A stretch of 63,842 nt of DNA, the filler included, from Albugo candida (Eukaryota): the NCBI GenBank assembly GCA_040437565.1. It is 19 parts of 19 records of this genome, joined end to end, with 100 filler letters (N's around TTAATTAATTAA, not from the genome) between each part and the next. Parts side by side here need not be neighbours in the genome. Positions count along the whole stretch, not along the records: positions 1 to 3,365 come from JBDOQK010000221.1; positions 3,466 to 6,826 come from JBDOQK010000222.1; positions 6,927 to 10,271 come from JBDOQK010000223.1; 16 more parts are not named here. One strand, written 5' to 3'. This document shows positions 1-47,412 of the stretch, one piece after another. The translations under genes and the position numbers were made by a program. Position 1 is the first letter of the stretch, and each line of letters starts with the position of its first letter. The notes beneath the pieces were generated by a model. It did not search any database. It saw only the letters and a program-made list of their open reading frames with translations, and had not been told where the DNA came from.

Positions 1-225
1 TTTTTTTTTGAAACAAGTTTATAACCCGAAACAGCACCATAGACAGGTTGTTATTTAGGTTAGAGTAAAGACAATTAAGCCTATAATGAATTACAGACAT
101 ATTTAAAGCTATTGTTTGTGAAAGAGAGAAAAAAATAACAACGACATAACATTAAACAGTTAAACAACATTATTTACAAACACATTCCCTTTTCGAAAAA
201 CCAAAAATATTATTTATTTATTTTT

Positions 226-1350
226 TTATTTCTTAGTACGCTTACTAGCTCTTGTTTTTCCTACCGACGCTGTTTTTTTGGTCCTTTTTTTATTACTTTC
301 ACGATTCTTACCCTTATTAGAGCTGCTTTCATTATTATTAGAGGGAGGCAACTCAGACTGCTCAAGCACAGGTGTTGAATCCCTATTCATAATACTACAT
401 AGTGTTAATAAATTTTAAAAGCTTCATCAGTTAAACATAACAACTTACGAGAAAGGCTCATCCTCAACAACTTCATTTTCAATTGGTGAAATAATAGGAG
501 GGCTATTAGCTACTTGTTCATCATTATCACTTGTTCCATCTTCTATATCATTAGTTCTTGTTGTGGAGGCGGAAGGATTGTTTGTTTCTTCTACATTCTC
601 TTCACCAGAATCGCCCTGTTTAGTTCCCCTAAATGCTTCAAACAACAAACGATCAGCACCCCACATTTCCACACAGTAATGAAGGTTGATCTTGCTTTGA
701 AATGCTTTTCCCTCCAATTGCATCATAAGGTTGTTCTTTAGTGAAGGGTGATTTTCTCCTAACTTATACCATGAAAAGCCCTTTAAGTTGGTGTTGTTGA
801 GAACAAAATCGCCATGAACTCGACTAGCAAGTACCTTCAAAGTTTTATATTTTTCAGCTATATCCTCGTCATTAATACTGCCAAGTTCAATTCCTTCCTC
901 TACACTTCGTAACACTTTCAACATAGCTTTGATACGATCTTTGTTAGATGGTGTTGCCGTGCTGTTAGTCTTTCTAGCTCCTTGAGGTACCTTTACAATA
1001 AAACGATCACCTCTCATGTTAGCATTAGCAATGGAAGCGGTTGCACTTTCTTGGGCTATTTAAATTTATATGAGTAAAAAGTAAAAGCTTCATATTGTTA
1101 TATATTTACCATCAGCAGCGGCTTCGTTGAGTGATTCATGTAAATTCTCACTCTCATCAATTCTTGGGAACAAAGGTGACAAAATCTTAATGAGCTGTTC
1201 TTGAGTTCTTTGAAGTTGATCGATCTTATTGTTCAACACACGAATTTGATGTTGATTCATTTCGTTCGAATTACTTTGTTCAACTACAGAGGTGTTACTT
1301 CTTCTCAATAAAGGGAGAGGTGTTGGGTTGTAGTTACTGTTATAAGACAT
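226..1350 (-). CDS. Transposon-associated hypothetical protein (family X), spliced, head-to-head with a CMC transposase
   Basis: ORFs 1090-1350 and 445-1017 plus a short Lys/Arg-rich last exon (...KTRASKRTKK*) are separated by AT-rich intron-like gaps. Core motif RIKAML...EKYKTL...W...LE...LHYCVEMWGADRLL is shared with 3466-3690 and 8251-9783. Confidence 0.7.
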
Positions 1351-1943
1351 ATTGTTTTTAAAAAGAAAATAAGATAAGTATATACGTAAAATAGTTTAAC
1401 GAAATTCAACAAACATGACCTTTTTATAATCAACAAATGACACCATGTTTCGGTTTTCTAATAAAAACAACGAGAGGAAAGTTAGTAATTAAAAAAGAAA
1501 AGAACTCAAAAAATCCAGGTGCGTAACAAATAAAAAATAAATTCCAGGTCAAGTAGTAGCATTGTTTGTTTGAACCCTAAAGTAAAAATTAAGGGACGTC
1601 AATTATTCTTTTGTTTGTTATATCGTAAACTCGATTATTACATAGCAGTCTGTGTTCACCTCGCATGATTTACTTGGTGAACATTTTTTTCAAGGTACAT
1701 ATCATATTAATGGTTGTATATTAATTGACAATTAAAGAACAAAATGCGCGCACAATTTCGGTACAAATATGTATACATTTTTTTTATCTCGCTTAATAGC
1801 AATTGTTTCCCTCGTATAATTATACCAACAATTCAACAATTCAACAGATATGAGTATATAAAGAGGAACTTCTACTTTTTTTACTTTTTTTTACTTCTTT
1901 ATTATTTCATTTTATTTTATTACTTATTAAATATATTACTTAC

Positions 1944-3365
1944 ATGCCTAAATCCAGAGTAGAAAGATATTCTTGTCAACGTGGTTGCCAGTTACGTTTT
2001 AACACAATAAAGCAACGCACAAATCATTATAGAAATAACCATGTCAATTTTTGTAACACAACATCCTCACAAGTAGTTGATAATGTAGATGATATTGTAG
2101 ATGATATTGTAGATGATGTTGTAGATATCTATGAAGATAATTGTAAGTATTCTATATCATAATTATAACAATACCAAATCTTATTAACGCTTTATTTCAA
2201 GCTACTTATCACAACCAAACAGAGCCTCTCTTATTCAATGTGTCTTCATCTGAGGTCGACATGTTCACCAAATCCGAGTTATATACTATGGTGTTTCAAA
2301 ATACAATCGACACATACGGTGTACCAAGAGAAGCAACAAGAGAATTTGTACGTCTAAACAACTCAATTGCTCAAGATAATCTCAAAGCCAATAATGTTCC
2401 TTTGGGTAAATATTTTCATTTGTAGTATTTGAGAATACAGTATTAACTTTTTCTTGTTACATAGATAATATTTCCAGCTCCTTGAAATTTTTAGACACTA
2501 TGAGTAACGCAATGAACAAGAAAACACCAATTCGAACAATCACTTACGAAATCTGCAAAAAGGGCTGTATGCTTTACCAGGAGAACGATACTACCACCAC
2601 CCATTGCTTGAATACAGAATGCAAGGAACCAAGATTTAAAAGTAATGGCGAAGCTCAACGAAAGATGCAAATGTTAACTGTCGGTCAGCAGATTTCAGCA
2701 ATGTTAGCTAATCCACAAACCAGGGACTTGATGAGATACCGTTCACAATACCAGTCGCAACCCAACGTGTACCAGGACTACTTTGACGGTGAATGCTATA
2801 AGGAGTATCAAAGCCAAGGATTATTTGCCGGTGATGATGATGTAGCTCTTGCCATGTTTGTCGACGGTTTCACAGCAACTAAGAGTGTCAAAAGCCCAAA
2901 GCTCCATATTGTACATTTTCTCAACTTGAATCTGCCACCAAGTATTCGTTATCAAGACAACTATACTTTTCAAGTTTGTGTAGTTCCAGGTCCCAACAAC
3001 CCTAAAAGCCTTATGGACACATTTCTTCAACCTATAGTAGAAGAATTGAAGCAACTTGCTACTGCTGGTATGGTGGTAACTGCTAATGGTGAATTTGTTT
3101 GTGAAGCAAAGGTACATTTGGTCATGGCCACTGGAGATTTGCCTGCCTCTATTGAACTCTGTCATCAAAAGACATATTCTGCTACATATGGTTGCCGCAT
3201 CTGTTCCACTAAGACTACAAAAGTAGATCACCATACTTGCTTTCTTGAAGGTCTTCAGCAACTTGAGATTAGAGATATTAATCAATTCAAACAACCTGAA
3301 TTATTTTGTCAATTACCTTCTTTCAATGGTCCTGCCTTTTTTGGTCTTGATGAAATGCACTTACT
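1944..3365 (+). CDS. CMC/CACTA (EnSpm-like, Transposase_21-type) DDE transposase, 3' truncated by contig end
   Basis: Removing GT-AG introns 2143-2201 and 2406-2464 (59 nt each) gives one frame. Motifs: N-terminal C2H2-like CQRGC..F..H..H, YEICKKGC, YQDYFDG, LAMFVDGF, NLNLPPSIRY, PGPNNPK, FLQPIVEELKQL, GDLPA, YGCRIC, LDEMHL. Confidence 0.9.
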
Positions 3366-3465
3366 NNNNNNNNNNNNNNNNNNNNNNNNNNNNNNNNNNN
3401 NNNNNNNNNTTAATTAATTAANNNNNNNNNNNNNNNNNNNNNNNNNNNNNNNNNNNNNNNNNNNN

Positions 3466-3690
3466 TCGAGAATCAACGAGTATTTCAACTTCACTTCTTT
3501 TGAAACTTCAGACCAAGGACACAAATAGTTGGTATCGTTGTTTACTTTCTTCAAATACAGAAGCATTTCATCATGTACCATTTTTGCCATCTGTTGCAAC
3601 GATTTGTATTCCATGTTTACCTTGTCTTCCAGATCATCTCCTAAGTAATTGCTTCTTTGTTTAAAATATGTCAACATGGCAAGAATTCTC
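3466..3690 (-). CDS. Fragment of family X accessory protein, head-to-head with the KDZ transposase
   Basis: RILAMLTYF...EYKSLQQMAKMVHDEMLL...PWSEVSKEVKLKYSLIL aligns by eye with both other family X proteins. The 3' end is cut by the contig and the 5' exon is unresolved (in-frame stop just upstream). Confidence 0.6.
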
Positions 3691-4116
3691 AGCCCCCTTC
3701 AACAAATACACAAAAAAAATATCTAAGTAGTGAAAATTCTCCGCTTGTAAGGCTTATCATTTTTATAAGTTTAAGCTTGTGATTGGAAGTTTGAGGAGTA
3801 TTCACTAAATGATAAAAAGTTGAAATACCGATAACCTCATTGATACGCTCTTATACAGCTTTATATCATAATAAATCAATACTAAACACATTATAGAGTA
3901 TAGTTATATTATTTATGGCTTTAAATTTTCAAAATGGTTGAAAAATGACGAATCAACTATGAGTTAAAATTTCCCCTGGGGAAAGAACCTACTTTGAAAA
4001 AATTCGAAAAGAGTAAATTTTGTGAAACGTTCCCAAATTTAAATATTTTTTCGCTAAGTCTCGTATTCATTACTCTTTTCCAATTTTTCTTATATAAAAA
4101 ATTTTACTTGTGCAAA

Positions 4117-6826
4117 ATGCAAACTGCTAAAACCTGGAAACGTAATAGACGCGATATCAACCCTCCCAGCGAGCATAGTACCCATTCCCAAGAAAATTGC
4201 GCCATCTCTCAACATTCTCACGATGAAGAACCAGCTAGATCTCGCCCTAGACACCAACTACTTCTCAGCAACACACCCTTCGACGCTTATTACGAACCTG
4301 AATTTGGTGGTTCAAATGATGATGTAGATCCAGTTGCAATTGAAATTGCTACTCAAAAGTGTAGCTGGAATCAAGTTCTTCCAACTTTGGTTGAACCATA
4401 TTTGGACTTCGTCGGCCGAGCTGGAATCCCCTTACCCATTCCTCATAAAAAGTGCACTGATTGCGACATCATCCGTACCGATTTGAGATGCAAGAAGGGC
4501 TGCACACCTATCGAATTTGTTTGCAACAATGGATGTGCACTAACTGAATTTCGAGAAATGAAGTTCTATGAACTTCATGGTAAGCAGACAAATTATAAAT
4601 ACATGTAAAACTGTCATTCCTAATACTACATTTTAGGTGTTGTAGTTCAAACATTCTTGTATTGCAATTGTGTAAGCTTGGTTCAAGCATTGATGAGAGT
4701 GGGCATGTTTCCCGTCTCTCCTAAATTTCCAAGATCTGCGGTAAGTCTTGGAGTACTTAACTTCCTGACAGTTATCAGGGACAACGGTGCCATCTCTGGG
4801 GAAGGATTGGCAAACATTTATAACGCCTTGGTGAGCGGTTGCAGCTCCAACGTATGTAATTTATTATTTCCATCGACTTTTGTACTAACGTAACTTTTTT
4901 GCTATCAATTAGAACCTGCTCAATGCTGGTGTTTGCCGCAACATTATCTACTATCATAGTAAGTTAATGTTGTTGGTGGAGAAACGCCTTCGTGATGAAA
5001 CTGAGGCCGCTCTCACCAGCTTTGAGTGCCCAGCCTGCCCCAAGGTAGTTATTCTAGTTAACATAATAAAAGCTTAAGTTGTTCACAGTTTATTGATAGG
5101 TTGGATACTCAAACCTCACCGCAAACAATATGCAGATTATCAACGGTGATGGTAACTTCAACCATAAGTGCAAGTTTGGTCCCGATCTTCTTGAAGAAAA
5201 CTTGGTGACTGAAGAGGAAGAGGAGGTTTGGGTAAGCCCCGAAAGCGTCAAGAAGTTTGAGAAAAACCAAATCTCCAAAGAGGTACCTATACACTATTGA
5301 ACATAATATGTATGCTTAAGTATGTGCAATTAACTTTAATAATAGGACCTAAATGGAGAGAACCATCACCGTGCAGCAGGCCATAGAGAAAATGTCAAGT
5401 CTCGCATGTATCCCATTACAGGCATCTTTGGGGCTGCATGCGCTCGCCATGGTACCATCCATAAGGTGGTAGATATGGAAACTGGCGAGGGGTAAGCTCC
5501 TATTCTACAATTACTTTGTTACAATATAGATTATACTAAGCACACTATCTTAAATAGCTCCAAGTATATTTTGGCTGTACTGCATGAGATGTTTGGTGGG
5601 CAATCGCCTATTGGTAGACCCAAAACTGGCGTCATGTACGATATCGTCTGTGTCGTTAAGAACTCATTGAAGGTACGAGACGTTTTATTTTAGCGATCAA
5701 TACATTCATAGTATTTTAACCATCTACATAGAAACATTTTCCTCAGTTCATGGGCGAACCGGGGCATAGGGAAGAAGATGCCTGGGTGTTGGCAGTTCCT
5801 GTGTTTCATGCATTTGCACATGTAATGCATTGCCAGGCTGCCTTCAACCCAGCTTACACCAATGTCGTTGGAAACGTAGACGGTGAAGGTATGGAGAGAT
5901 TTTGGTCGGATATGGCTTCTTTGATTCGTATGACAAGAAATATGTCGCATGCCAACAGAAGAATGGTATGGACAAAAGCAATGTTGTTTTTCAACAAGAA
6001 AAAGAAGAACATCATGGGTAATGTGTTGAATGCAAAAAGAGATGCAATATTGTAGTGCTAAAATTCGTAATATAATATGTAATTTATAGGAGAATTTCTT
6101 GGAAAAAGGTTCCAAACCACGACCAATGCTTTGGTTGAAGCTAATTGGGCCTTAGAGTCTCCTTTGGTATCTGAGAGTAGCCTTGAAGATACTTGGTCAG
6201 ACTTTTTACAAAGAATGCTGGCTAGGTCTTCTTCTGGCAGTAACTGGTTTGACATCCCTGAGGAGCTTGAGCTGAAGGTGAAGTACCACTTCTTGGCCGC
6301 TTATGAAAAGTTTTTCACGTACGTACTCAATTGAATATAGGTATTATTTGACTAACTGTCGTTTTTCGTTACTCAGTGAACAACAGCTGTCTGAAGAAAG
6401 GTTTGAAGGAAGAACTTACTTCACCTCAGGTGTAAAAGCCATCCAAGAGGAAAAGGATGCGATTCTGAAATTGGTACTAGAGGCAGACAGTGATTTTGAT
6501 CCTACTCCTGTAGATCTTAGCGCTGCTGTTTTCACTGCAGAAGAACTGCGCCAATTAAAGAAACGTATTGTCGTAGGTTGCGTCAAGATGTTGATGGTCT
6601 TGTACAAGAAAATGGACAAAAAGCAAAAAGAGGGTCGTATTGGTAATGTATAAATTTTATTGTGTTGGTTGTATTATTCTTAATACTTTACACCTTTGGT
6701 AATTTTTTCTGTAGGTAGTAGAAACATTGGCAAGTACAAGGAATCCTTGGCTAAATACGCAGACAAGATTAACGAGTTGCTCAAGTTGTATAATACCACT
6801 CTTGTTGCTATTGCTGGTAACTATAT
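4117..6826 (+). CDS. Kyakuja-Dileera-Zisupton (KDZ) transposase with N-terminal CxC-type cysteine cluster, 3' truncated
   Basis: About nine short GT-AG introns (first 4580-4636, last about 6643-6714) join exons encoding YCNC...LMRVGMFPVSPKFPRSAVS, ECPACP, NGDGNF, GAACARHG, DMETGE, MYDIVC, VPVFHAFAHVMHCQAAFNP and GNVDGEGMERFWS. These are the canonical KDZ motifs. TATA-like TATATAAAAA at 4091. Confidence 0.92.
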
Positions 6827-8250
6827 NNNNNNNNNNNNNNNNNNNNNNNNNNNNNNNNNNNNNNNNNNNNTTAATTAATTAANNNNNNNNNNNNNNNNNN
6901 NNNNNNNNNNNNNNNNNNNNNNNNNNGTGATGTACGTTTGATAAGGTGTTGTAAGGGAGTTGAGCATTTGAACGTTCCCATCCGTTAAATTTACGACGTA
7001 TTTGAGCATTCAGATGCTCATCTGTGCCGTATGTATTACTGCCATATGCTCAGATGTTGAAATCCGTCTTACGCGTATAAACGTTAAAATCACACTTATG
7101 TTGACTGAAAACAACTCCCATACGTTTTGATTTAAGTATATTTGAACGTATTTCAGCATTTATAATTTTTAAAATGGTCTCATGCGCGAATATATGCTTG
7201 TATATATTAATTTGGGTTTTAGGTTCAACGAATGATATAATTGCATTTAAAGAATGAGACGAATAGAAATACAGATATTATTATTAGATTTAGTCAAAAT
7301 ATATGGCTTTTATTGAAAAAAATAGCATTAAATTTGCTAGGGTACATATGCTTGACTATATATATATATATATTATGAAATAAAATAAAATAACATAATT
7401 GTTTAAAGATAATGAAGAAACATAGTCAAAATATATTCTATAGTAAAGGGCTTGTAACACATGAGAGCAATAGAAGAGGTCGACCGAAGAAAGTTTTATG
7501 TTATGGCAGCCAGGGATTAATAATTTATTCTAATACACTCCAACCTATTAAGAATACTATAATGCATTAGCAAAGAATGAAAAAAATATATCACATCAAT
7601 TTATACCGCGGTAGTCTTACAAGAAATAGACGTGAAGAGAGAGAGAGCCTTGTTAAGTAACCTATTAAAAAAAGTGAAGATTATTAGTTGTTGAGATGCA
7701 GCGATGAAGTTAAATGAGGTTACCAAGTTAAACGACGAACTTGTTGTGGGTATAATAAGCACTACCTAAGAGTATACACATAAGTTAGAATACTAAGATT
7801 TGAGATGTGAGAGAGTTCTTTATTTACCATTTCGAAATGAGGTAAAGAGGAGAAAGTAAACACAAAAGTAACCAAGATGGTCTTGACATGCAGCACCGAG
7901 ATCACTAAAAGCAACAATAGACAAAGACAAGGGTAAGTTATATAAATATTTACCATGAATTAAACCGTCAGACAAGAGAAAATAGCCCGCATAGGAATGC
8001 TAGACGCCAGAAAAGTTAAACATAATATAATGGAAGGGGAATTATTTTTTTGAAAAAATTGTTTATTTAAAAAAAAGCGAGAAAAAAAACCCTATGGGAA
8101 GTGGTTGAAAGAGAAAAGAAAAAAGATAAAAAGAGGTAAAAAAAAAGAAAAGCTTTTATGCTTTTTCAAAAAAAAACGGTCCTACAAAAAAAAAAGATGT
8201 TTAGATTAGTTTTAGCTGAAAAAAGAGATGACTATATTTAGACTTACAAT

Positions 8251-9783
8251 TTATTTTTTTGAGCGGGTTCTTTTGGCGGCAGGCTCTTTACCCTTTCCCT
8301 TGTCTTTAGAAGAACCACCAGCAGATTTCTTTCCACCAGAAGAAGTAGGCTCTTTCCCCTTTCCCTTCTTGTCTTTTGTAGAGCCAGCACCAGTAGCAAC
8401 AGAGTCATCAGCACGCTCTTTGCCTTTACGAGACCCCTTTGAAGAAGCAGCAGCAGCGTCCAAGAAAACTTTTTCTGCTGGAGTAAGCAAAGGTGAGGAG
8501 GGGGGAGATATTTCTTCAATATCTTCATCACCAATACTTACCTGACCCCCCCTCAATTCACTTACCAAATCCTCGTCATCATCACTGCTATCAGAGGCCA
8601 CATGAACAACTTTTCTTTTACTACTGGCACTAGTAGAGCTTTCACCTCTACAGAAAGAAGAAGGTACAAGGTTCTATCAAAAGTAAAATAAAATTAGCTC
8701 ATTTTTTATATTTGATATACATATATAAAATTACCTGGACAGGTGGTGTTCTTTGACTAGGAGCACGAGACTTGCTATTTCTTAAAATAGCAGTCAAGAA
8801 GAAGTTCACCGCATAGAACTTTTCAGTACAAAAAAGAGGGAGACCAGCACGCATTGCCGAAAGGCTTCTTTCAACATAATCTTCTACTAAAAGACTGTAG
8901 GAGTCACGAGTAGATCTACTCAAGTCAGACCAATTGGGAACAGAGTCTCTACCAGCTAAAATTTGTACATCCACAAATCTTCTTATAGCAGCATAGGTAA
9001 GATCATACCTTTCGTTCAAAATATTTTCAACGTCCTCTTCGCCATTTTCATTCAACAATTTGACACCCATTTTTTTGTAGTACAATTCCATTACACTCAA
9101 GAGGGCTTTCTTTCCATTTAAATCACTAGGAGCGTCACTTCTTGAAAAATCTCTTGTACCATGAGCAAAAGGTTGGCTATACACCGCATTCAATTTCTCT
9201 TCAGTTCCATAATAACTCATAATAGTTGCATAAGTTTGCTCAGAAGAGTGATCTTCAATTTCCAAAGCTAAAATATAATTACAAAAATAATTAAAAAGTG
9301 TGTTCGTCGTATATGAAAATATAATAACTTACGTCTATTTCTTTGGGATCCTAATCCAGCACGACCTTGTTCACCAATAGCTTCAATGACGGCTGCCTTA
9401 ATCAAAGTAGACAATTCAGGTTTCATAGCTTCGAGAATAAATCTGTAAAGCACCGTGAGATCTTGATTGTTGTCTTGACCTTGTTGTTGTTGTTGCTGTT
9501 GTTGACCACTATTGGTGATACTGGCAAAAGACAAAGGCACAAAAGGAGGAGCATTACCAGAAGAACCACTATTGTTGGCAGAAGAGTTGCTGTTGTTAAT
9601 GATGGTACTATTCAATACCGAATCAAAAAAGTCATCATTACTTTGACTAAAGTCTTGGGTATCAGCCAAAGGAGACAAATAAGAATTCATATTGCCGTCA
9701 GAATCATTGAAGCTGTTGCTATTAGGAGCAATGTCAGAAGGAAGGTTGTTGTTGTTGTTGTTGTTGTTGTCGTTGTTAAGCAT
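8251..9783 (-). CDS. Family X accessory protein, apparently complete (3 exons)
   Basis: ORFs 9268-9783, 8699-9265 and 8251-8601 are separated by intron-like segments. N/Q-rich N-terminus, core NERYDL...NWSDLSRSTRDSYSLLVE...GLPLFCTEKFYA, basic KGKGKE-repeat C-terminus ending KRTRSKK. Confidence 0.75.
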
Positions 9784-10371
9784 TTTAAAGTGTTATAAAT
9801 TTGACGTGAAAGAGAAAGATAATAATGATACAAAAAAAAGAGAAAATTAGCGTCCTTAAATACTTTTTATTTTGAAAAAAAAATTATACATTCACCTTTT
9901 TTGAATGGGGACCGACATTGACTAATCACAAAGTAGCTGATCTTGGGAAAACGGGCAATTTTTCTAAAGAGGAAATACGTCAAAGAAGGCTTTGTCTCTC
10001 TTTTTTTTTTTTTTTTTTTTTTTTTTGTGTCGAGAAAGGTTGAGTTGAAAAAAAAACTAATTTTAGCCTCAGTGTTGTGCCACACTATAAAAAAGACGTA
10101 ATACTTAGTAATATGAATTTGTAGGAATAAATACATCATTATCTTACATTATTTCTATAGATATGTATTTTACTGTTGATATAGCTTCTTCAATAGTAAT
10201 CATTGTATATATCCATTCTTTTGAAAGCATTAGAAGTTTTGTCGAGAAGTAATTTCAAGGTTGCATATTTTNNNNNNNNNNNNNNNNNNNNNNNNNNNNN
10301 NNNNNNNNNNNNNNNTTAATTAATTAANNNNNNNNNNNNNNNNNNNNNNNNNNNNNNNNNNNNNNNNNNNN

Positions 10372-13301
10372 TCTGAATTCGCAGACCTTCCTTTGGATAT
10401 TGGTTTTCAAGAAGAAGAAGATTATGATGATGAACCTATTGAAGATCTTAACAATGATTTTAATTTTTTTGTTGACGATGATGAAGGTAAATAATTTGTT
10501 TATTTAATTCTTTTATTTTTATAACTTTTATTAATCATAATTAATAGATACTGAACCTGAATTCCAACAAGAGACTAGCTTTAGTGATCCCAACAAGTAT
10601 CCTACTGAACCTTTCTCTTTTGCTCTTGTTTTAATGATGTTGTGCATTCATCCAAGATATCTTACTGATGAAGGTGCTGAAATTGTAATGGCTTTTTTAA
10701 ACGTTATTTTGACTCTTGCTCAAAAGCAATTTCGTTTTCCCAAGACAGTCAAAACGTTCCAAACCAGAATCAATTATGATGAAAACTTCTGTTCAGGTTT
10801 ACAAACTTATGTTGCTTGTTCCTCCTGTCATTGTATCCACAAGTTACCAGCAGATCAACAAGTACGCCGCAGAAACCTAAAGTGTACGTTTGCCAAACGT
10901 ATATCGGACGGTGGAACGGTGTATGAGAAGTGTAATACATCAATGTATAACATTTCGAAGAAGGGGTTGTTACAGCCAAAGTCTATCTTTATGTATAACT
11001 CTATTATTAATACAATCAAAAAGTTTTACTTACGCCCCAACTTTGTTGAATCCATCTCTGCTTGGAAAACAAGATCCCTCCAACATGAAGACTACTATTT
11101 CGACTGCTATGATGCTGATATCTTCAAGAATTTCAAGCTCCATTCCTCTGATCGCATTCCCTTTGTCCAACAAAGTCCCCACAATCTTATGCTTTCAATG
11201 AATTTAGACTGGTTCAAGCAGTTCAAGAACAGCGAATACAGTATGGGTGGAATTTACATGACGATTTTGAACTTACCTCTTGAGCAACGAAATCTTCGTA
11301 AAAACATGATATTTGTTGGTTTAATGCCAGGAGGTAATGGCGAAGCCTCTTTAGAACAGATCAATAACTACTTGAAACCTCTTGTTGATGAGTTGTTAAT
11401 ATTCATGAATGGTGTAGAGATGCATGTTCCTGGTGTAGGTAATGTCACTGTCAAGGCAGCTTCAACTATGTTCTGCATGGATCTTCCCGCTGCCAGCAAG
11501 ACGATGGGCTTCAGCGCTCACAATAGCTATAATGCTTGCCGAAGATGCGACAAGGTTTTCAAGACAATTCCTGGACCTAATCACCAGATTGACTTTTCCG
11601 AAACAGATGACACCAAATTTAAGCCAAGATCAAAAGAGTCTAATTTACAAAGGGCTCTACAATTCAAAGATCTTACAAATGCCACAGCAAAACAAAATTT
11701 TGTTAAAAAATTTGGAACAAGATACTCTCAGTTTCATCGCCTGCCCTATGTTGATTGTGTCAAGAATACTGTATACGATCCGTTACATTGTGTATTTATT
11801 GGTAGTTTTAAAAGAATCATGCACTTCATCTTCTTAAAAAGAAAGTTAATTACGCAAGATCATCTTAAAGAAATGGCACAACTTACACGAGAAATTGTTC
11901 TTCCTCCTGGTTATGATTCTACTGCCATTGCAGGCAAGATTGTTTCTGGTAAAGGTTTTGGTCAGATGAAAGCGGATGAATGGAAAGTTTTTACTCTTGC
12001 ACTTTCTCCTTTCCTGTTAAAAGGCCGCTTGGACACAAAATATTATGACCATTTTATGATTCTTGTTGAATGCATTCAAATAATGAGTCTCTCAAGCATT
12101 TCAAAAACTCAAGTAGACCAATGCCATCAAATGATACGTCGTTTCAACACTGAATTCGTTCAACTTTATGGAAAAGAAGAAGTTGTTAGCAACATGCACT
12201 ATCATTTTCATTTAAGTGTAAGTTTTATTTTTTATGCACAATGCACAATCGATTTATTAATTTTTTGTTTTAAACTATTAATAGGAGGATATGCATAATT
12301 ACGGTCCGTTCGCAAGCCATCACTGCTTTGGATACGAAAGATACAATGGTATGTTGAAGAACATTAGGACAAATAACAAACAGGGTTTGGAAAAAACAAT
12401 TTTCATAAGAATGCTGCAAAGTATTTTTATTGATGATTTTGATTTGCCCTTTCCCTCTTTAGGTGATTCTTTGGGTGATGCAGATTTATACTCGTCTTTG
12501 TGTGATATTTATAGTGGTAAAGATATATATGGCAATCGAAAGAGGTTTGTCGAACAGAATCTGAAAGGGGAAGTAGATAATACTAGAAACGATAAAGATT
12601 TCAATTTACTTGATTTCATTTCTTTTTCTGGTTGCTTAGATGGTAATGGCTATAAATTTGCATACGGGTATGAAAAATTACCTGTTGCTACAATTTTATC
12701 ATTGTCCTATAAAGCAAATCGAAAACCTAAATTAAATGATGATGAGTATCGACATCTTCTGGCTTATTATCAACACTATTTCAAATCATCAAATATGCAT
12801 GCTTTTGATGATAAGGCGGGTATACATGGGAAGTTAACAAGCGAATACTCAGTCGTAGAGAATAAAATTATGCGGTTTAATTCGGTGAAACTTCTGGGTA
12901 GCTGTTATAAATCTATGGATATGTCTTCAGTACGTGGTAATATCATTTTCGCATATTATCGATATTACGATGAAGAACCAGACAAAAGCTTTAATGAACT
13001 TCGTCCTGCCCAGATTCAGTTCTTTTTTAGGCACGAAGCCAACATTTTAGATGATACCTCTGGTAAATATCAGTCTTTTATTTTCACGTTTGTTTTTGTC
13101 AAATGGCTTCAGGAAGCTGATTTGGATATTACTACATACAATACTAATAATACTAGAATATATAAGGATACGTATTTAAATGACTCGTATTTATCAATTT
13201 TACCTGTCAGTTGTATTCATTCTCCTGGTGGTATTTACGATGCTCCTCTTGAAGGTTATAAAGTCGTGTTTAAATTGCCAAGAAAGATATATGAAGAATA
13301 A
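10372..13301 (+). CDS. CMC/CACTA-type DDE transposase, 5' truncated
   Basis: Introns 10487-10547 and 12218-12284 restore one frame. Motifs: YVACSSC, LSMNLDWF, ILNLPLEQR, YLKPLVDEL, CMDLPA, ACRRC, DPLHC, MKADEW, NMHYHFHLSEDMHNYGP..HCFGYERYNG, and C-terminal RPAQIQFFFRH..FVKW..ILPVSCI. Confidence 0.92.
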
Positions 13302-13710: not shown

Positions 13711-14115
13711 NNNNNNNNNNNNNNNNNNNNNNNNNNNNNNNNNNNNNNNNNNNNTTAATTAATTAANNNNNNNNNNNNNNNNNNNNNNNNNNNNNNNNNN
13801 NNNNNNNNNNGTCTGTTTTTGAAATAACTCTTTTAATTTTGATGATAGAAAGACGTTCTATGCAGAATAAAGTGTTGTTATCAATATAGCTATCTAGATC
13901 AATCATAATAGAGTCTATGGGGAGAGATCTTTGCAGAACCCGGTCATCTGACCAAATATATATAGTTAGTGGATTTTGTTGTACTACATGACCTCATATC
14001 ACTATAAACGGTTTACGAGATTCGAGTTTTACTAAAATAATGAAATCATAGCATTATAGCAATTTCTGTTCTTTTTCTCTTTTTTTCTTTAAATAATTTA
14101 ATAAAAGTTTCTACA

Positions 14116-15547
14116 ATGTTTCCTTCACCAAGCTCCCAATTATCTATCCGATTAGCTGCACTCAGACAAATTGCAGAAGCTGAGAATCGTATCAGAGCGT
14201 TAAGAAGAGAACGTATTTTAGAAGAGCATCGTCGACAACTTGCTGTTATTGATAGGGTGCGTAGCATTCGCGAGCAGTTAGGTACTTTGAAAATTGACCA
14301 GTTACCTGATGAAGATTGTTTAATTTTGTTCCGATTCACGTATCAACAAGTAATTTCATTTCAACTTCTTTATTACATATAAGTCTTGTAGTGTTTACTT
14401 TTTTTTTTTTTTTTTTTTTTTACTTTTAGATAAAAGAAATGACTAGAGCCTTTGGTTTTGGTGAAAAAATCAAGATAAGAGCAGAAGATCCTAGTCATGC
14501 ATACGACGTTGATGCTGTTGAAGTTATTGCAATTATGCTTAAGCGACTTAGCTTCCCAGCTAGGTTAATTGACCTTGGCTTTCTATTTGGTAGAAGTCAA
14601 CCAGAAATGAGCCGCATATTTAGAACAATAATAAACATTTTGTACCATAAATACAGCAAAGCAATGGAAGTAAATCTTCATCAATTTAGCCCAGCCAATC
14701 TTCGTAGATTCAGCGAAGCAATTCATTCAGCTGGTGAGTAGATATATCATTATAAATTGCGATCGTTGTCATTTAGAAATTAACTTCTATAATATATATA
14801 AGGGTCTCCATTCCCAAAGTGCGCTGGATTTATTGACGGCACCTTTATGCATTGTGCTCGACCCGTCGAAGACGCTATCCAACGTATTCTGTACAATGGA
14901 CATTATGTAAGTGTGCTATTTATTAAAAATCAACAATAAATGATATCTAATCTGCTTAATTGTAGAGGGGTCACGGGTACAAGTTTCAATCAGTTGAAAC
15001 ACCCGATGGACTTACCTCCTGTTTATGGGGTCCAATTACAGGTAATCGACACGACGCACAAATGTATAACGAAAGTCACTTGGAAGATATTTTGCGTCCG
15101 TTATTTGATAGAAGAGAAGAGGAAGGTTGTCATTACCACTTATATGGTGACCAAGCGTATGGACAATCAGCAGTAATGGAACGTCCATTCAGTAGAGGTA
15201 CAGATCAATCTATTATGCGCCTGTTGTAGTTTCAGTAAGCTAACATTTTTTATATACTAGTTACGACAAATGAAGAACAAAAAGCCATAAACAGAAATAT
15301 GTCTAGCGTTCGCGTTAGTGTGGAGAACGGGTTTGCCCAAACAACAAGCCTGTTCGCTTATCTCGATTTTGCTCGTACTTTGCGGTCAATGGGAAGCCCA
15401 GTTACCAAAGACTTCGTGATTGCCACTCTTTTGAAGAACATTCTCGCTTGTATGAATGGTGGTAATCAAATCAGCCGTAGGTTTGGTGTTCTTCCACCTA
15501 CATTTCAAACATATATGAATTCTTTGGAGACACATCAACAACAATAA
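14116..15547 (+). CDS. Harbinger/HARBI1-like DDE transposase (DDE_Tnp_4 type), 5 exons, apparently intact
   Basis: Four GT-AG introns give an open frame with LKRLSFPARLIDLGFLFGRS, CAGFIDGT, QRILYNGHYRGHGYKFQ, PDG, GNRHD, LYGDQAY and MSSVRVSVENGF (D, D, E triad present). Confidence 0.92.
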
Positions 15548-15593
15548 ACGATTAGTATACTTTTTATAAATTTTTTATTGTTATTTTATTTAT

Positions 15594-16520
15594 TTATTTA
15601 TCAGCAGGCATTATAGGGTGGACTGTTGGACGACCACCAAGCAACGTCTTCAACATTTGCTTTATCTCCTTCATGTCATCACGAAGAGACTGAACTTCCT
15701 TCTTCAGTTCATCCTGTTTCTTCTCGAAACTTTTCATATTAGCAACTAATTGCCGATTTTCCTTCTTGGCCTCTTCATTCTCATTCAACAATCCTTGAAG
15801 TTCTTCCTGCAAGCTTTGGAGAACGTTCGTGTCATTGAACACCACAGGAGCATCTTCAACATATTTTTCGATGGCATCCCCCTCAGCATCACCTCTTGTT
15901 TTTCTCTTCTTTATTGCAGAAGAACCTTTTTCTTTTCTTCTCTTTTCTACGGGAGGACCCATGCTTTCCAAGCGCTCGAGAACAACGCTTTGCGTATCCG
16001 CATCCTTATTCTTCTTTTCTTCTTTTTGACGTTTTTCTTCCGTCTCTTTCTTCTCTTTTTCATCGCTCTATAGTGTACATGTGAATATGTATTACTTTTA
16101 TTATCGATTATAACATTTTATTACCCTGGATTTGTAATCGTTGATAAGTCTATCTAGCTTACCGTACTTTTCATTACCTCCACTCTCGTTGGCACCTTTT
16201 TTATCTCTTGCTACATAATCGTTGACCAAGATCTTACATCTTTGGTGGATAGTCCTCAAGCTTAAAGGTTCTTTTACATCCTTATCAACTAGATTTACGG
16301 CTTCCATGATCCTTTTCCAAGCAATGTTTCTCTCCTTGTACTTCATCTTGGTAGGATCCTCGTCTATCATTCCTTCCATTAACTTGATATCACGATCTAT
16401 CGTCCATTGACAATTGGCGTGAGCGTACAAGTGATCTAAATTTTGACTCTTTTTGTTATTAGAATCGTTGTTGTTGTTGTTGTTTTTAGAGTTAGTAGTT
16501 AAGATATTGTTGAGATCCAT
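15594..16520 (-). CDS. Harbinger accessory protein, Myb/SANT(trihelix)-like DNA-binding domain plus coiled coil
   Basis: Exon 1 encodes QWTIDRDIKLM...NIAWKRIMEAVN...LSLRTIHQRCKIL. One intron (about 16071-16124) leads to a charged coiled-coil exon. It lies inside the TIRs, convergent with the transposase. Confidence 0.8.
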
Positions 16521-17694
16521 TTTTTAAAATATTGAGAAGAGACAAAAAAAAAGAAAGGAAAAAAATTAAATAATATACAATAATATTATTCTTTATTTCA
16601 TATCGACGTAATGACATAAAAAAAAGGACGTTTTGGGAGTTTAGTAGCCTAAATGATTGGCTATTATTGTTCTGCAAACTTCAAAAATTTTTGCAAAACT
16701 CTTGCAAAATTTGAAAAAGTTTGCAAGATTTTTTGTGTAACATGGCGTCATATTTCCTTATAGGGTCCTGCAAAGATCGTTCCCCATAGACTCTAATAAA
16801 TAACTCTACACAGCCAGAGGGACTTCGGATATATTGGGACTAGTGTGTTTTAATCGAAAAATGGAAAGGCCATTCATTACTCTTTTAAGAATAGGTTGAA
16901 AAACTTGGGGGTTCCCCCAAATTATCGTTTTATTCTATATCCGGAATAGACTACTATTCATCCCCTTCACCCCCATATTCCCATATCCCCCAGTTATTAT
17001 AGCTCATAAAAATGATTGCCCTTGCAAAATATAAAAAATTTATTATAATATCATAACAAAATTCTACAGACATGGCCTTGGCAGCACATACCACAGAAAG
17101 TGGTAAAGAGAAACACTCTTCTTGCNNNNNNNNNNNNNNNNNNNNNNNNNNNNNNNNNNNNNNNNNNNNTTAATTAATTAANNNNNNNNNNNNNNNNNNN
17201 NNNNNNNNNNNNNNNNNNNNNNNNNACTAAGTATTATATTTGAGCTTTATGTTGTTCTACTTACTTTAATCCTCAGCTTCAATCTAGCAAACAGCTACTT
17301 TTGATTTTTGGGTTTGGGAAGAATTTTATTATAAAATATTGTTCTAAAGATTTAAACGGCAAGATGGCCCACACGTTCACAAAGTCTGTCCAACACAACA
17401 TTGATGATTTTCTATATACAATAAAACTTTAGATTTTTTCCTTCACACAAAAACAAAAAATAGCATTACTTACTGACGCGTTCTTAAAGCAACGATATGC
17501 ATTTTGGAGGCAAAAAAATTATCCTTGTGTTCTGGGAGCCCACATCAGTCAAATTCGACTATTCTAACTTGTTTGCTCAATAATAAGCAATAATAGCTTC
17601 TTACTGATACTCTATTATTAAACTTGCACTATGTTAAAATCCTTCTTTATTGCTTAGCTGTTTCTGACCTGTATTGATCACGCAATTTTTGATT

Positions 17695-24177: not shown

Positions 24178-25512
24178 TCATGGACACAGATTCCTTGCCT
24201 TAGACTCCAACCAGCTTTGTAACTTGACATTAGCATTAGCAATGCCAACTTCAGGAATCATACCTTGCACCGTTTTATCAAACATTTTCAACATGTCACC
24301 ATTCACAGCATGCTTGAGACGAAGACTATTTTCACCAGTTAAGTGGTAAGTACCATTTTGATTCACACGAATAACAGTAAAAGGACCTAACCATTTATCC
24401 GAAAACTTAGTAGTAGGAAGAACATCCTTCATCAAGACTTCATCACCAACTTCAAATTGTTTTCTAAACACCACACGAGAGTCATACCTTTGCTTTGCCT
24501 TAGCCTTACGAGCATCCGACCTCTGACGAGCAATTTCCTTTACTTGAACCATCTTTTCCTTGATTAGTTTCACCCTATCAACGACTTCTTCCTCTTCTTC
24601 ACCAATAACAAAATCAACTCTAGGAGCAACCCAGACAGCAGGGGTACGAAACTCATAACCCATTAATAGATACGACGGAGAGTAACCAGTACTAGCATTC
24701 ACCGTAGAACGGATAACCATCAAGGCAGAGTCGATATACTTGTCCCATTCACCAATATCACTTTCATCACGCGCAATTTTAGCCATAATTGACACCAAGG
24801 TACCATTCAATTTTTCGCACATACCGTTACATTGAGGCCTGTAACTAGTAGTCATAATGTTTTTGCAGCCTAGTTGTTTCAAGAATTCATGGACATAAGT
24901 TGATATAAAATTAGACCCTCTGTCAGACAAACAGTATTGCATCACACCATAATCCTTCACAATAGAGAACAAGAATTTAGCAGTTGTTTCTTCATTTATA
25001 TCCTTAACAGCAACAGCAACAGGCCAGCGAGTCAAGTAGTCAATACCAGTCAATATGTATTTGTTCTTGGATTTAGTAATTTGAAGAGGACCAACAGCAT
25101 CAATACCAATCATGAAAAATGGATGGCGGGGAGTCTTGAAAATAACACCAGGATTACTTCTTAAATTCTTAATTCTAGCGCGGTGTTGACAGGTTTCACA
25201 GGATTTTACTACAGCTGTAACCAATTTTCTTCCGTCATGTACCAAGTAATGTTTAATGACCTTGTCCAGAGTATTCAAAATTCCTAGATGTCCTTCCTTG
25301 TGAATTCTAGTGATAGCTTCAAGAGCATTACCTTCATGTAATAGTTCTCTACCACTCTTCTTTTCCAGTAAGCGACCATCTTCGGCAACCATCAATAATT
25401 TAGCTCTATAGCGGATCCTTCGACATACATCACTTGTAGCATCCTTGGGAAAAGTACCATCAGATAAGTAGTAATAAAGAGACAAATACCAAGCAAGAGA
25501 AATTAAACCCAT
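24178..25512 (-). CDS. Ty3/Gypsy-type integrase in its own ORF
   Basis: HKEGHLG..CETC zinc finger, IGIDAVGPL, IDYLTRW, LSDRGSNF, YRPQCNGMCEKLNGT (DDE) and C-terminal KFSDKWLGPF (GPY/F). First ATG at about 25512. No internal stops. Confidence 0.92.
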   Translation of the reverse strand: MGLISLAWYLSLYYYLSDGTFPKDATSDVCRRIRYRAKLLMVAEDGRLLEKKSGRELLHEGNALEAITRIHKEGHLGILNTLDKVIKHYLVHDGRKLVTAVVKSCETCQHRARIKNLRSNPGVIFKTPRHPFFMIGIDAVGPLQITKSKNKYILTGIDYLTRWPVAVAVKDINEETTAKFLFSIVKDYGVMQYCLSDRGSNFISTYVHEFLKQLGCKNIMTTSYRPQCNGMCEKLNGTLVSIMAKIARDESDIGEWDKYIDSALMVIRSTVNASTGYSPSYLLMGYEFRTPAVWVAPRVDFVIGEEEEEVVDRVKLIKEKMVQVKEIARQRSDARKAKAKQRYDSRVVFRKQFEVGDEVLMKDVLPTTKFSDKWLGPFTVIRVNQNGTYHLTGENSLRLKHAVNGDMLKMFDKTVQGMIPEVGIANANVKLQSWLESKARNLCP

Positions 25513-25990
25513 AATATTTGATTTTAGTACACCAACAACAATAATATCCACCAGTAGATCAGCAACAGCAATTAGAATTATTTTACTTGGATTAAAATAC
25601 ACCAGGGCAATAAGGATAAGTTAAGACCAGGTTCTTGGATCACCAGGGTAGGTTTACTTCAGAATAGATATATAAAGGGATCTTATATAAAAATGTACAG
25701 TAATCAGAGAGAATTAAATTAGATAAATAAAGGATCTTATTTAACGAAGTTAATTTCAACAAGTAGTATTTAAGAATAATAAAGTGGGATTTATTTTATA
25801 AGTATCAATGAATAGAAAAGAGATAAAGATAAAGATAAAAAAAATAGGCTAAAGATACGATAAAAAAAAATTTTGCCTCCAAAAGAGATCATTATTGAAT
25901 GTCCAAATATATAATGTTTTTGAGATTGTTTTTTAAAATTTTGTACTGTTTTTGAAATATTGAATCACCACTACCGTTTCCACAGAAGCT

Positions 25991-27314
25991 TCAGACTATC
26001 TTGATGATATCCCGCACATCACCTTCTTGTAATTCCACGACCTTTCGAGATAGAGGATCCGCTGGATTTAATTTACCAGGCCTAAATTTAAGCACATAAT
26101 CAAAAGACAACAAACAGGCAGCCCATCTAGTTAATTTAGGAGACAACTTCGATTGACCAAATACAGAAAGCAAGCTATGATGATCAGTTACCAAGACAAA
26201 TTTTCTTCCACGCAACCAGTGTTTATACTTGTTTACTGCATAAACTAGAGCCAAAGCCTCCTTGTGATGAATATGCATCTTGACCTCAGTATCAGTAAGC
26301 AATCTAGATCCATATGAAATAACCTCTTCATTTTCAAGACCTTCCATCGAGTCAACTTGAGTTACAACCACAGAAATCGCAAAATCAGAGCTATCACACG
26401 TTACAATTTGTACCTTGTTCTTGTCTGGGTAAGCTAATAGAGGTTTAGAGATTAAAGCCAACCTAATCTTCATAAAGTTTTCTTGACATGTTTCAGACCA
26501 CACAAAATTACTGTTCTTCCTAGTCAAATTACATAGAGGTTTGCACAATTCAGAGTAACCACAGATATACTTGGAAAAGTAATTAGCTAAACCTAAGAAA
26601 GACCGTACCTCAGTAGCATTAGTGGGCTCAGGAAAATCCTTCATTCTTGCAATGTGAGAGTTACTAGGAGAACTGCCTTCCTTTCCAAGAACATGACCTA
26701 AGTATTCTACAGAGTCTTCACCAAAGTGGCACTTCTTCCTTTTTAAGCGGACATCATATTCACGAGCCAAAGAGAGAAACCTTCTTAAGAGCACCTTATG
26801 AGATTCCATATCAGGAGAAACCAAAAGTAAATCATCCAGAAAAATATACAGAGAACCTTCTTCTACCAATTCTTTAAAGATACCATACATAGCATGTTGG
26901 AAACTCGAACAACCAATAGTAATACCCATAGGAAGTTTCTTAAACTTATAGCAGCCCATATGTGTAGTGAACCCAGTGACTTCAGAATTTTCTTCGTCTA
27001 GACCCAGTTGAAAATACCCAGATGCCAGGTCACAACAAGAGAAAACCTTCATTCCAGACACAGCTTCTGTAATTTCTGAAACAGTCGGCACAGCAAAATT
27101 TTCCTTCACGATCATTTCATTCACCTTTCTAAAGTCTACCAGAACACGTTTGTTATTGTCAGACACAGGACCACGCTTGTCAATTAAGAACAATGGAGAA
27201 GTAAAGACACCAGAAGCAGGTTCAATAATACCAAGTTCTATCATTTCTTCAATGTATTTCTTGACCAATTCTTGTTCATGCCAGCCTAGCCTAAAGGGAC
27301 GACACCTTACCGGT
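25991..27314 (-). CDS. Ty3/Gypsy reverse transcriptase-RNase H, 5' truncated
   Basis: RVLVDFRKVN, DLASGYFQ, LPMGI, YIFLDDLL, YLGH, RSFLGLANY, CDSSD, KEALAL, TDHHSL, NPADPLSR. Ends in a stop at 25991. Confidence 0.95.
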
Positions 27315-44910: not shown

Positions 44911-47412
44911 TGTCATGCCGCCGAGTCGGGCAACAATATGGAGCTGACTCTATGCTAGACAGGCCATGACGTCACAGGCCATGACGTCACAGCCTGACGT
45001 CACAAGATGACGTCATTAGGAACATTATAGAGTGACCTAGAATGATAGGCTTAGAGGTAGCACAGGGTAGCGAACTAAGGACCTATATTAAGTCAGTTTT
45101 AAATTTCTAAGTGAACAATCAGTCTTCAAATCTGGTAGCACTTGTTGGTCCTCACCGTCCCCGCCGTCCTCGCCGTCCCTACCGCACCAGCCGCATTCTT
45201 GCCGCCTCGAGAAACACCTGGACACGTCTCACCGCTCCGACTCGCGCAAAAAACATCAAAATTCCCTTACTCTCGCACGCCAGTGACTTCTTAGATTCGA
45301 GACCACTGTGAACCTGCGCATCTCACGCAAAATCACTAAGCACAGGGTCAAAATTATCCGAGTTTCTTGTGCCGACCGCTAATTCAAAAACCTCCTTGGA
45401 ACCCGGACCAAAGGTTGTCAAGAGAAGCACCCAAGAGCCAAAAAGGACCCCAGATCAACCACGTAGAGTTAACTAATCGTATTGGCTCAACAATGTCCAC
45501 CCCGATGACTTCTGATCAGCATGCACAATTGCTGTACTCTATGGTTAAAACTATGGAAAAACAAGCGCAATTGCTCGAGCAATTTCAAAAATCAAAACAG
45601 CTTTCGGAAATCAATCTAGAGGCTGTGACACTTCCGACGTATGGAGGTAGGCTGGATGAATCCTTCAACTCTACAAGGAGCAAGTGGAACAATACTTCTT
45701 TGCAAGAGGAGTGGACTGATAGAGTCTACAACTTTCTCAAAGAATACTCGCTGTCTTAGGCGGGACAATGAAGAAAGGAGCCGCTCAGTGGTATGTGATG
45801 CAAAAACAGTATGTCACAAACGTGGACGACTTCTTCAGCAAAGTCGAACGTGAATTTGTCCCTGGTGATCTGCAAGAGCGTCTGCGTGAGAATATGAACA
45901 ATGGGAGAGAGCGCGATTGCGAAGATCTTCCTGATTATGTGTGCAAGTTTCGCCACTTAGTCACTCGAGTTCAAGAGATGAGCGAGCTGGACCAGATCAT
46001 GTACTTTATCTGTGGACTGACAGGTCGCACGCGGAAAGATGTTCAGTACCGTCGCCTGTACAACACTCTCCGAAGCTATCACGGTTGCGTTAGACTTTGA
46101 CCATTCTCATCCGCCGAGACATTCTCGAGGAATTTCGCACGATAGACCGCGGTACAGGTCATACGAAAGCAGTCGTCGATATCGATCAAACGATGGTACG
46201 GATCCAATGGACATCAGCTACGTGCAAATTCCGTCTCGCGACGAATGTCGCCGCCGTAATTTGTGCTTCAAGTGCGGAAGTCCAAATCATCGCTGCGCAC
46301 AGTGTCGTCATCGCCAGCCACGTAATGATCGAGGTAACAATCGTCCAAACGGAATTATCAGCAAAATGGAAGTCGTCAGCAAGGCAACAATGTGGACAGC
46401 CGTGAGGACGAAAAAGAATCCACTTTTTACGACCGTGTCATGATCAATGTCGTGGAGGTCCAAAAGACGACAGAAGTAGAACCTATTGTCTTAGAATCAA
46501 GCAACTTTGGATCGGACATGCCAGTGGAAGGTCGACTACTAGTACGTGATGGTGTCATTAGAAACAAATCCGTCAAGATTTTGATCGACTCTGGTGCGTC
46601 CACAAATCTGATCAAACCTGGTCTGTTCTCAAAAATACTAAGCGCACAAAAGGTACAAGCGCGTCGTTTTGACGGAACGTGGACATCGAGTCATCCCACG
46701 AAGAGAGTGGAAGATACCCTTCGCATCGACGGTATGGAGTTCCCAAGGATGCAGTTCATGGAATGGGATTTACCGGATACGCATGAATTAATATTTGGTC
46801 AACCATGGTTCACCAAGTACAACCCACGAATTGATTGGCGATCGCAACATATTGAAGTTGGAGCCCAACGAAGTTCGAAGACGTGGATGGTCCTACCTTC
46901 CAAGAGAAACTGAACAGGGGAGCATATGAGGAGATATATCAGCTGAAGATTACCAACGTAGAACCATCAGAAATATCTCAGGAGCTGAAAGCAGTTCTGG
47001 ACGAACACAAGGACGTATTTCCAGAACAACTTCCGAATGAAATGCTTCCAAAGCGATCAGTGAACATCGAACTGCAAATAAAGCCTAATGCGGTGCCGAG
47101 CGCCCGTGCTCCCTTTTGTCTTTCGAAGGTTAAGCAAGAGGCACTGCAGCAATTCGTTGAAGAGAATATACGAAACTAATGGATAGAAGTAACCAACCCT
47201 TCATGGGTCTCCAATATTTTTGATATCTCAAAGAAAGATCCCACAACCGAAAAGTTCCCAAAACGCGCCGAATGGCTCCGAAGCGGAAATTCGAAGATTC
47301 CCATTCGCTGGGTAATTGAATACCGTTTTGTGAATAGCATGTCCGTCGTGGCAAAAATTCCTTTGCCATTAATCGAAGAACTACTCGACCGCATGGTTGA
47401 ATGCAAGTATTT
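44911..47412 (+). mobile_element. Decayed Ty3/Gypsy LTR retrotransposon (5' LTR, gag, protease, RT start), oomycete-like
   Basis: Putative LTR TG..CA 44911-45128 with TGGTAGCA PBS-like sequence at 45133. Gag with DPMDI and CFKCGSPNHRCAQC, protease LIDSGASTN, LIFGQPWF, and RT start KKDPTT..IPIRWVIEYRFVN..PLPLIEELLDRM. Frameshifts and stops. Confidence 0.88.
44967..45015. promoter_or_regulatory. Four tandem TGACGTCA (CRE/bZIP-type) palindromes in the putative LTR
   Basis: Perfect TGACGTCA at 44967, 44982, 44995 and 45008. Function inferred only. Confidence 0.55.

Follow-up and report, generated by a model that had tools for sequence, protein, structure and literature searches.

The window analysed here is a stretch of 63,842 nucleotides from an assembly labelled Albugo candida (GCA_040437565.1), made up of 19 contigs of 3.2–3.4 kb each with N spacers between them. 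Its first three contigs each carry a gene, or a piece of a gene, for a protein of a family that we call X: X1 on contig 1 (positions 1–3365), X2 on contig 2 (3466–6826) and X3 on contig 3 (6927–10271). X1 stands head-to-head with a CACTA/EnSpm-type transposase gene, in an arrangement that recurs in a second, independent locus and suggests an accessory gene of CACTA-type elements, and the X2 fragment lies beside a gene for a KDZ-type transposase.

X1, labelled in the database as ‘hypothetical protein ABG067_007742 [Albugo candida]’, is encoded on the minus strand in three exons. Exon 1 (1110–1350), with its ATG at 1350, encodes an Asn/Ser-rich N-terminus and a coiled-coil-like helix ending in the motif L..L.P.FPR, which is also present in the family members P0078, P0022 and P0044 and in the homologue on the metagenome contig L001 described below. 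Intron 1 (1056–1109; 54 nt, GT..AG, phase 1) separates it from exon 2 (449–1055), which encodes first the conserved core, about 105 residues with five predicted helices, and then a disordered acidic region. Beyond intron 2 (395–448; 54 nt, GT..AG), exon 3 (226–394) is Ser/Asn-rich and then becomes a Lys/Arg-rich tail resembling a nuclear localization signal (NLS), with the stop codon at 226–228. Exon 1, intron 2 and exon 3 were read from the sequence, and the NCBI model of the gene, P0001, supports exon 1 and agrees on both introns; it splices the last few codons otherwise, with an end that is still basic. Short, nearly identical stretches of contig 1 are found at low depth in runs from at least four other studies; public runs X2–X5 (run labels, distinct from the gene names) contain only such pieces. 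One contig from run X4, whose kind is not recorded (record 17, 314 nt), joins position 1055 to 1110 and so leaves out exactly intron 1, a stretch that ends CT..AC on the plus strand; a spliced copy of X1 therefore exists.

The AlphaFold2 model of the X1 core has a mean predicted local distance difference test (pLDDT) score of about 90 or more over residues 40–140, with helices at residues 39–55, 64–88, 97–103, 105–121 and 130–144. Exon 2 has six homologues with E-values from 1e-24 to 1e-51 (of 92 candidates, seven have E ≤ 0.01, X1 itself included), and X1 and these homologues have in common an invariant C..MW.ADRLLFEAFRG block.

The transposase gene of contig 1 (1941–3365, plus strand) has several exons, the first of them C2H2-like and followed by a Transposase_21 domain (PF02992; 2410–3363, E 2.7e-15), and its 3′ end is cut by the contig end. 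The start codons of X1 and the transposase gene are divergent and separated by 590 bp (1351–1940), in agreement with the initial annotation, which had placed X1 about 600 bp from a divergent CMC/CACTA transposase. Within the transposase gene, at 3299/3300, contigs of public runs X2 and X5 carry an extra 33 nt relative to the window (in frame, 11 codons), and loose ends at the same point in run X3 agree with such an insertion; the difference may reflect either a slip in assembly or an indel polymorphism.

A scan of metagenome contigs for the family returned two loci, L001 and L002; two scans of prokaryote genome contigs and a scan of viral contigs found no further X loci. L001 (6641 nt) carries a three-exon X homologue on the plus strand (4203–5285). 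Facing it on the minus strand, in head-to-head orientation, is a Transposase_21 gene (E 2.8e-9); its first exon begins at 3797, which leaves a spacer of 405 bp (3798–4202). Between contig 1 and L001, identity amounts to 48% for the transposases (287 aa) and 34% for the X proteins (174 aa); the pair, its orientation and its spacing have therefore been kept through deep divergence, with X evolving faster. The suggestion in the initial annotation that X is a transposon partner gene thus probably holds, the head-to-head arrangement of X with Transposase_21 recurring in the independent L001. L002 (1785 nt) has 105 nt upstream of X.

Searches for terminal inverted repeats (TIRs) in contigs 1–3 gave nothing convincing, the window contigs being too short to hold the ends of an element. 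Poly-A is the sole DNA repeat that the window contigs have in common, and element ends are therefore not mappable from them. The left end of L001 (1–79) has three copies of a roughly 23-nt unit, and its right end (6305–6548) has a 44-nt periodic array with an 18-nt motif present three times at 6386–6548, which differs from the left motif; these end repeats are possibly candidate subterminal repeats of an element.

Direct BLASTP comparison of the three window proteins gives weak matches (X1–X2, E 8e-4; X1–X3, E 0.087; X2–X3, E 0.005). Their relatedness, which the initial annotation had claimed for the three contigs, is confirmed at the coordinates given here by a family profile, by tblastn with an intact paralogue of X2 and, for X3, by hhalign. 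A profile built from X1 and its six homologues and searched against 1.84 billion representative proteins matches 69 proteins at E ≤ 1e-3, 22 at E ≤ 1e-10 and 7 at E ≤ 1e-30; P0071 (1851 aa, with repeated short AADRLLF-like stretches) and P0061 were left out of the family alignments as spurious. The profile matches P0063 with E 1.5e-4 in 1.84e9 proteins. Over the length of the window fragment this protein has the same sequence as X2, and it runs beyond the contig end into the C..CW.ADRLLF family motif. In the same 90% cluster is P0078 (KAL0582471.1), a 265-aa protein encoded on a 6.1-kb contig of this assembly, in which X2 has two copies. On contig 1, tblastn with P0078 matches the whole X1 gene, including the N-terminal exon (E 4.2e-10, 255 columns); X1 and X2 are therefore homologous.

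X3 lies on the minus strand of contig 3, with 488 nt of contig upstream, and consists of exon 1 (9333–9783; an Asn/Gln-rich N-terminus and a helix, with donor GTAAGT and a phase-1 intron as in X1), exon 2 (8735–9267; a distant version of the X core domain, recognized through two homologues and profile links) and exon 3 (8251–8673; Ser/Asp-rich, then a Lys/Gly-rich basic tail), exons 1 and 3 coming from a reading of the sequence. Besides itself it has two homologues (three proteins at E ≤ 0.01 among 94 candidates). The small profile built from X3 is not significantly similar to the X1 profile in hhalign (E 0.28), and against the 71-member family alignment X3 reaches E 6.6e-4 with a probability of 27%. 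A hidden Markov model (HMM) of X3 reaches E < 0.01 with 11 of the family's 71 members, all in register, and 1.9e-5 with two of these, the best reversed control being 0.89. With a 21-member X2-like subfamily, hhalign gives a probability of 90.1% and E 1.6e-6, compared with E 0.11 for the reversed control and, among 30 column shuffles, 0.18 at best; the result is somewhat flattered by the choice of subfamily, which was made partly from the best matches of the X3 HMM. The AlphaFold2 model of X3 is poor (pLDDT 54) and has helices in the X1 order with similar lengths. On these links X3 is accepted as a distant member of the family.

X1 and X3 are alike in gene layout: a low-complexity N-terminus and helix, a phase-1 intron, the core exon, a Ser-rich or acidic stretch and a Lys/Arg-rich tail. 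All three complete genes (X1, X3 and the L001 homologue) end in a basic tail, so that the NLS-like tails attributed earlier to the two complete window copies are indeed seen in both.

X2, by comparison with its intact paralogue, is a fragment. What remains in the window (3466–3698, minus strand) corresponds to residues 80–153 of P0078 only, with 73 of 74 residues identical by tblastn; the frame is immediately preceded by an in-frame stop, and at its 3′ end it runs off the contig. The missing residues 1–79 of P0078, which comprise the coiled-coil exon and part of the conserved domain, have no tblastn match on either strand anywhere in contig 2. Relatives in the X2 subfamily have a conserved NP.L.G.R.I...EA...TP stretch immediately before the point at which the window copy starts. 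The gene is thus broken at about 3698 and has no start codon. The C-terminal half that it lacks in the window, family motif included, can be read in both P0063 and P0078. Just upstream of the break, at 3715–3810 on the minus strand, another frame reads ..NTPQTSNHKLKLIKMISL.., faintly like the TP....R(I/L).A(L/M)L segment of the family; this stretch could be a decayed duplicate or a chance likeness. A word-index search gave no longer relatives of the X2 fragment among 14 candidates.

The KDZ transposase gene of contig 2 (4117–6653, plus strand) encodes a CxC1-like cluster (4624–4893, E 2e-5, 25.1 bits, slightly below the Pfam cut-off of 26.9) followed by a KDZ domain (5732–6055, E 1.8e-18, 67.5 bits). 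The gene is split over at least six frames, and a single open reading frame (ORF) matches only the last third of the Pfam model. Between the start codon of this gene and the X2 break, where similarity to the intact paralogue ends at about 3698, lie 418 bp (3699–4116). The adjacency reported in the initial annotation, at about 430 bp, is therefore present; the intact X2 copy that it implied is not, the gene being truncated at its 5′ end. No complete X gene whose start codon faces the KDZ gene is present in contig 2, and a bidirectional promoter serving X2 is untenable because the fragment has no start codon. The 22-nt sequence at the junction of X2 and the KDZ gene is unique in the window, and no inverted repeat joins the junction to the other end of contig 2. 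A complete KDZ element would be expected to end in TIRs with 8-bp target site duplications (TSDs). KDZ elements with known ends are 6–11 kb long (PMC11343200), compared with 3.4 kb for contig 2. The simplest readings of the X2–KDZ arrangement are insertion of a KDZ element in or next to an X2 gene, some other rearrangement, or an assembly chimera. The case stands closer to juxtaposition or nested insertion than to a shared module.

No Pfam family is common to the 53 X proteins scanned at E ≤ 0.01, a single stray match occurring in one member, and X1, X2 and X3 themselves give chance-level matches only at E ≤ 0.1. The description of X as an orphan family with no named domain, made from the window alone, therefore stands. 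A sequence profile search of the PDB gave nothing credible (best E 0.0034, to a hypothetical protein). For the X1 core, which is modelled confidently, the fold comparison proposed earlier returned no clear PDB match: Foldseek against the PDB has a best E of 2.8, with nothing above noise, and in VIA-align not one chain among 48,161 scores Z ≥ 5, the highest Z being 4.9 with no row standing apart. In the ESM Atlas the best score is 0.89, to unnamed Ascomycota clusters and below the 0.9 level taken as a lead. Across the 53 sequences, W97, E116, C129 and W133 are invariant or nearly so, and the net charge of the core is positive in 63 of 74 members, with a median of +4.

A quick family tree of 78 rows resolves several deep subfamilies. 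The X1 clade (22 rows) adjoins the L001 clade (8 rows), and the two together form a 30-row clade with a Shimodaira–Hasegawa-like approximate likelihood-ratio test (SH-aLRT) support of 85; X2 falls in a separate clade of 10 rows, and P0009, which resembles X3, groups with Rhizopus proteins on a long branch. The family is found in multiple copies, one 90% cluster having seven members on at least six contigs of two Thamnidium elegans assemblies. Every member that bears an organism name comes from the Mucorales, in seven species (Pilobolus umbonatus, Parasitella parasitica, Rhizopus delemar, R. stolonifer, Mucor flavus, M. plumbeus and Thamnidium elegans), in agreement with the Mucoromycota origin assumed in the initial annotation. 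Literature word searches found no description of the family; Repbase and paper supplements, which possibly hold a Mucorales EnSpm consensus with a second ORF, lay outside their scope. X is thus a real, sizeable, unnamed and Mucorales-restricted family; it comprises 69 clusters at 50% identity, has no entry in Pfam and contains a small helical domain that is modelled confidently.

We have moderate confidence that X is a fast-evolving, multi-copy accessory gene of a Mucorales CACTA-type element. It would be the second, non-catalytic gene of a CACTA/EnSpm-type (Transposase_21) lineage, divergent from the transposase gene across a spacer of 400–600 bp. Its product would combine an N-terminal coiled-coil-like helix, the five-helix core of roughly 105 residues, which resembles no known fold clearly, and a disordered tail that is acidic and then basic and NLS-like. 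By analogy with other two-gene cut-and-paste elements, it most likely enters the nucleus and aids transposition or the regulation of the element, binding element DNA, the transposase or both. The X2 piece would be a truncated copy, not a working partner, that came to lie beside a KDZ element through insertion or rearrangement in repeat-rich DNA, and X3 would be a distant paralogue with its neighbours outside the contig. Several points weigh against this account. Only two X–CACTA neighbourhoods, contig 1 and L001, are informative; L002 and X3 have less than 0.5 kb upstream. In L001 no convincing TIRs or TSDs surround X and the transposase gene, the best inverted pair being 22 nt long, 82% identical and AT-rich; the placement of X inside a transposon is thus putative. 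The short contigs of a fragmented assembly are enriched in repeats, which inflates chance adjacency to transposases, and some X copies may be host genes, given the many single-member clusters and the members on Mb-scale contigs. X1 and X2 belong to different subfamilies, and the true partner of the X2 subfamily could be KDZ. Fold searches gave no match above noise, and the function put forward here for X is a proposal.

That last possibility for X2 belongs to a wider alternative, in which X is a portable helper for both CACTA-type and KDZ transposons, divergent from the transposase each time and exchanged between superfamilies. It takes its appeal from the X2 fragment itself, head-to-head and 418 bp from a gene with CxC1 and KDZ domains, and from the separate deep subfamily of 10 rows to which X2 belongs and which could have its own transposase partner. 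There is precedent as well: PMC12730594 describes TET/JBP genes that are carried by 11 lineages of transposons, KDZ, EnSpm and Plavaka among them, and pass passively from one to another, and PMC11343200 describes Cryptococcus KDZ elements that carry extra ORFs without known domains. Set against this, the only X–KDZ case lacks codons 1–79 and a start codon and has a stop directly upstream, and the metagenome, prokaryote and viral contig scans gave no second X–KDZ neighbourhood. We consider the portable helper unlikely. A module shared or swapped with KDZ elements on a bidirectional promoter, the main proposal of the initial annotation, rests on this single truncated copy; sharing of X between CACTA and KDZ elements is not supported and, in our estimate, improbable. 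A variant, in which the subfamilies serve different superfamilies (the X1 type CACTA/EnSpm, the X2 type KDZ) and the window X2 is a decayed real pairing, is equally doubtful. Under that variant, X would be the equivalent, without enzymatic activity and in early-diverging fungi, of the superfamily-hopping TET/JBP cargo in Dikarya. The X2–KDZ junction could also be an assembly chimera at a repeat boundary with no adjacency in the genome: the assembly is highly fragmented, contig 2 begins inside the multi-copy X2 gene and similarity to the paralogue stops abruptly at 3698. None of the observations argues directly against a chimera, which we nevertheless regard as improbable. Finally, X could be an ordinary lineage-specific host family, for instance of nuclear regulators, that sits in repeat-rich DNA with transposase neighbours by coincidence. 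The lack of convincing TIRs around X and the transposase gene, the many 90% clusters with a single member, the members on contigs of 0.4–5.9 Mb and the window contigs, which are mostly transposon pieces anyway, would all suit such a family. They contend with a pair, orientation and spacing kept in two elements at 34–48% protein identity, with near-identical paralogues on many contigs, and with a transposase upstream at all three loci counted that have at least 0.4 kb upstream (contigs 1 and 2 and L001), and we judge a host family rather unlikely.

The restriction of named relatives to Mucorales bears on the source of the DNA. Since all named relatives of X belong to this order, the X-bearing contigs are mould-like DNA within an oomycete-labelled assembly, and contigs 1–3 look like DNA from a mould co-sequenced with Albugo candida; the family thereby flags mould DNA in the assembly. 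Across contigs 1–3 (1–10271), introns are about 54–65 nt long and the GC content is 30–37%. The higher-GC contigs of the window may come from another organism than contigs 1–3.

Elsewhere in the window, contig 4 carries a second, distant Transposase_21 gene (10541–12298, E 1e-9) with 23% identity to the contig 1 transposase; the contig extends only about 170 bp upstream of it, so that no partner gene is visible. Contig 5 (13811–17125) holds a PIF/Harbinger-like piece, with an HTH_Tnp_4 match at 14430–14738 (E 3e-4, below the Pfam cut-off) and more ORFs on the plus strand. On its minus strand, an ORF at 16101–16523 resembles a small DNA-binding partner gene, and one at 15594–16067 encodes a Lys/Glu-rich coiled coil. 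The latter (15597–16067) is the fourth match in the window to the iterated family HMM (E 6.6e-4) and was rejected as compositional, being a Lys/Glu-rich coiled coil without the C..W motif. Retrotransposon pieces lie at 24181–27313 (reverse transcriptase, RNase H and integrase of Ty3 type), 45723–46910 (gag-protease) and 58107–59075 (copia-type gag/pre-integrase).

In two-gene DNA transposons, import into the nucleus, recognition of the ends or escape from silencing depends on accessory proteins that are poorly conserved, and to our knowledge almost no such proteins have been described outside plants. The X family appears to fill this role for the CACTA-type elements of Mucorales. The order includes the agents of mucormycosis, and transposon control by RNA interference and heterochromatin is under active study there; a profile of the X family would improve the annotation of Mucorales transposons and provide a candidate for functional study. 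Both CMC/EnSpm and KDZ elements have been reported in Mucoromycotina, with CMC/EnSpm expanded in Mucorales (PMC5751038). For CACTA-like elements of animals and fungi, the accessory proteins have no detectable mutual similarity, and CACTA accessory proteins evolve too fast to be recognized across lineages (PMC1636069).

Compared with known systems, X has conceptual analogues in two other superfamilies. The Myb-like second ORF of PIF/Harbinger elements acts in nuclear import and end binding, and the analogy with X is conceptual only, the superfamily and the fold being different. Likewise, VANC of the Arabidopsis VANDAL elements (Mutator) is a second gene that serves its element, through sequence-specific anti-silencing; it belongs to another superfamily and has another fold, and the analogy with X is again conceptual only. 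VANDAL is named in the Introduction of PMC12730594. The TET/JBP cargo, similar to the picture of X in the initial annotation, is an accessory gene beside transposases of several superfamilies in fungi (same source); in contrast, X has no match to the TET/JBP dioxygenase Pfam family in 53 members and is found in Mucorales, not in Dikarya. The extra ORFs of Cryptococcus KDZ elements, such as CNA07680 in KDZx1, have no recognized domains and lie beside the KDZ transposase inside defined TIRs and TSDs (PMC11343200); they can be likened to X by description only, and the X copy beside a KDZ gene is truncated. A further comparison is with the En/Spm system. Transposition of maize Spm needs TnpA in addition to TnpD, and TnpA binds element DNA and modulates the element promoter (PMC1636069). 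No sequence similarity is seen between TnpA and X, and X lacks every CMC-linked Pfam family, including Transposase_23 and Transposase_24, in the list of PMC5751038, since no Pfam family is common to the 53 members. TnpA is one of the alternatively spliced products of a single transcription unit; X, in contrast, has a gene of its own, transcribed divergently, and its DNA binding is putative. Like X on the present reading, TnpA is a non-catalytic protein of an element whose transposase has a Transposase_21 domain.

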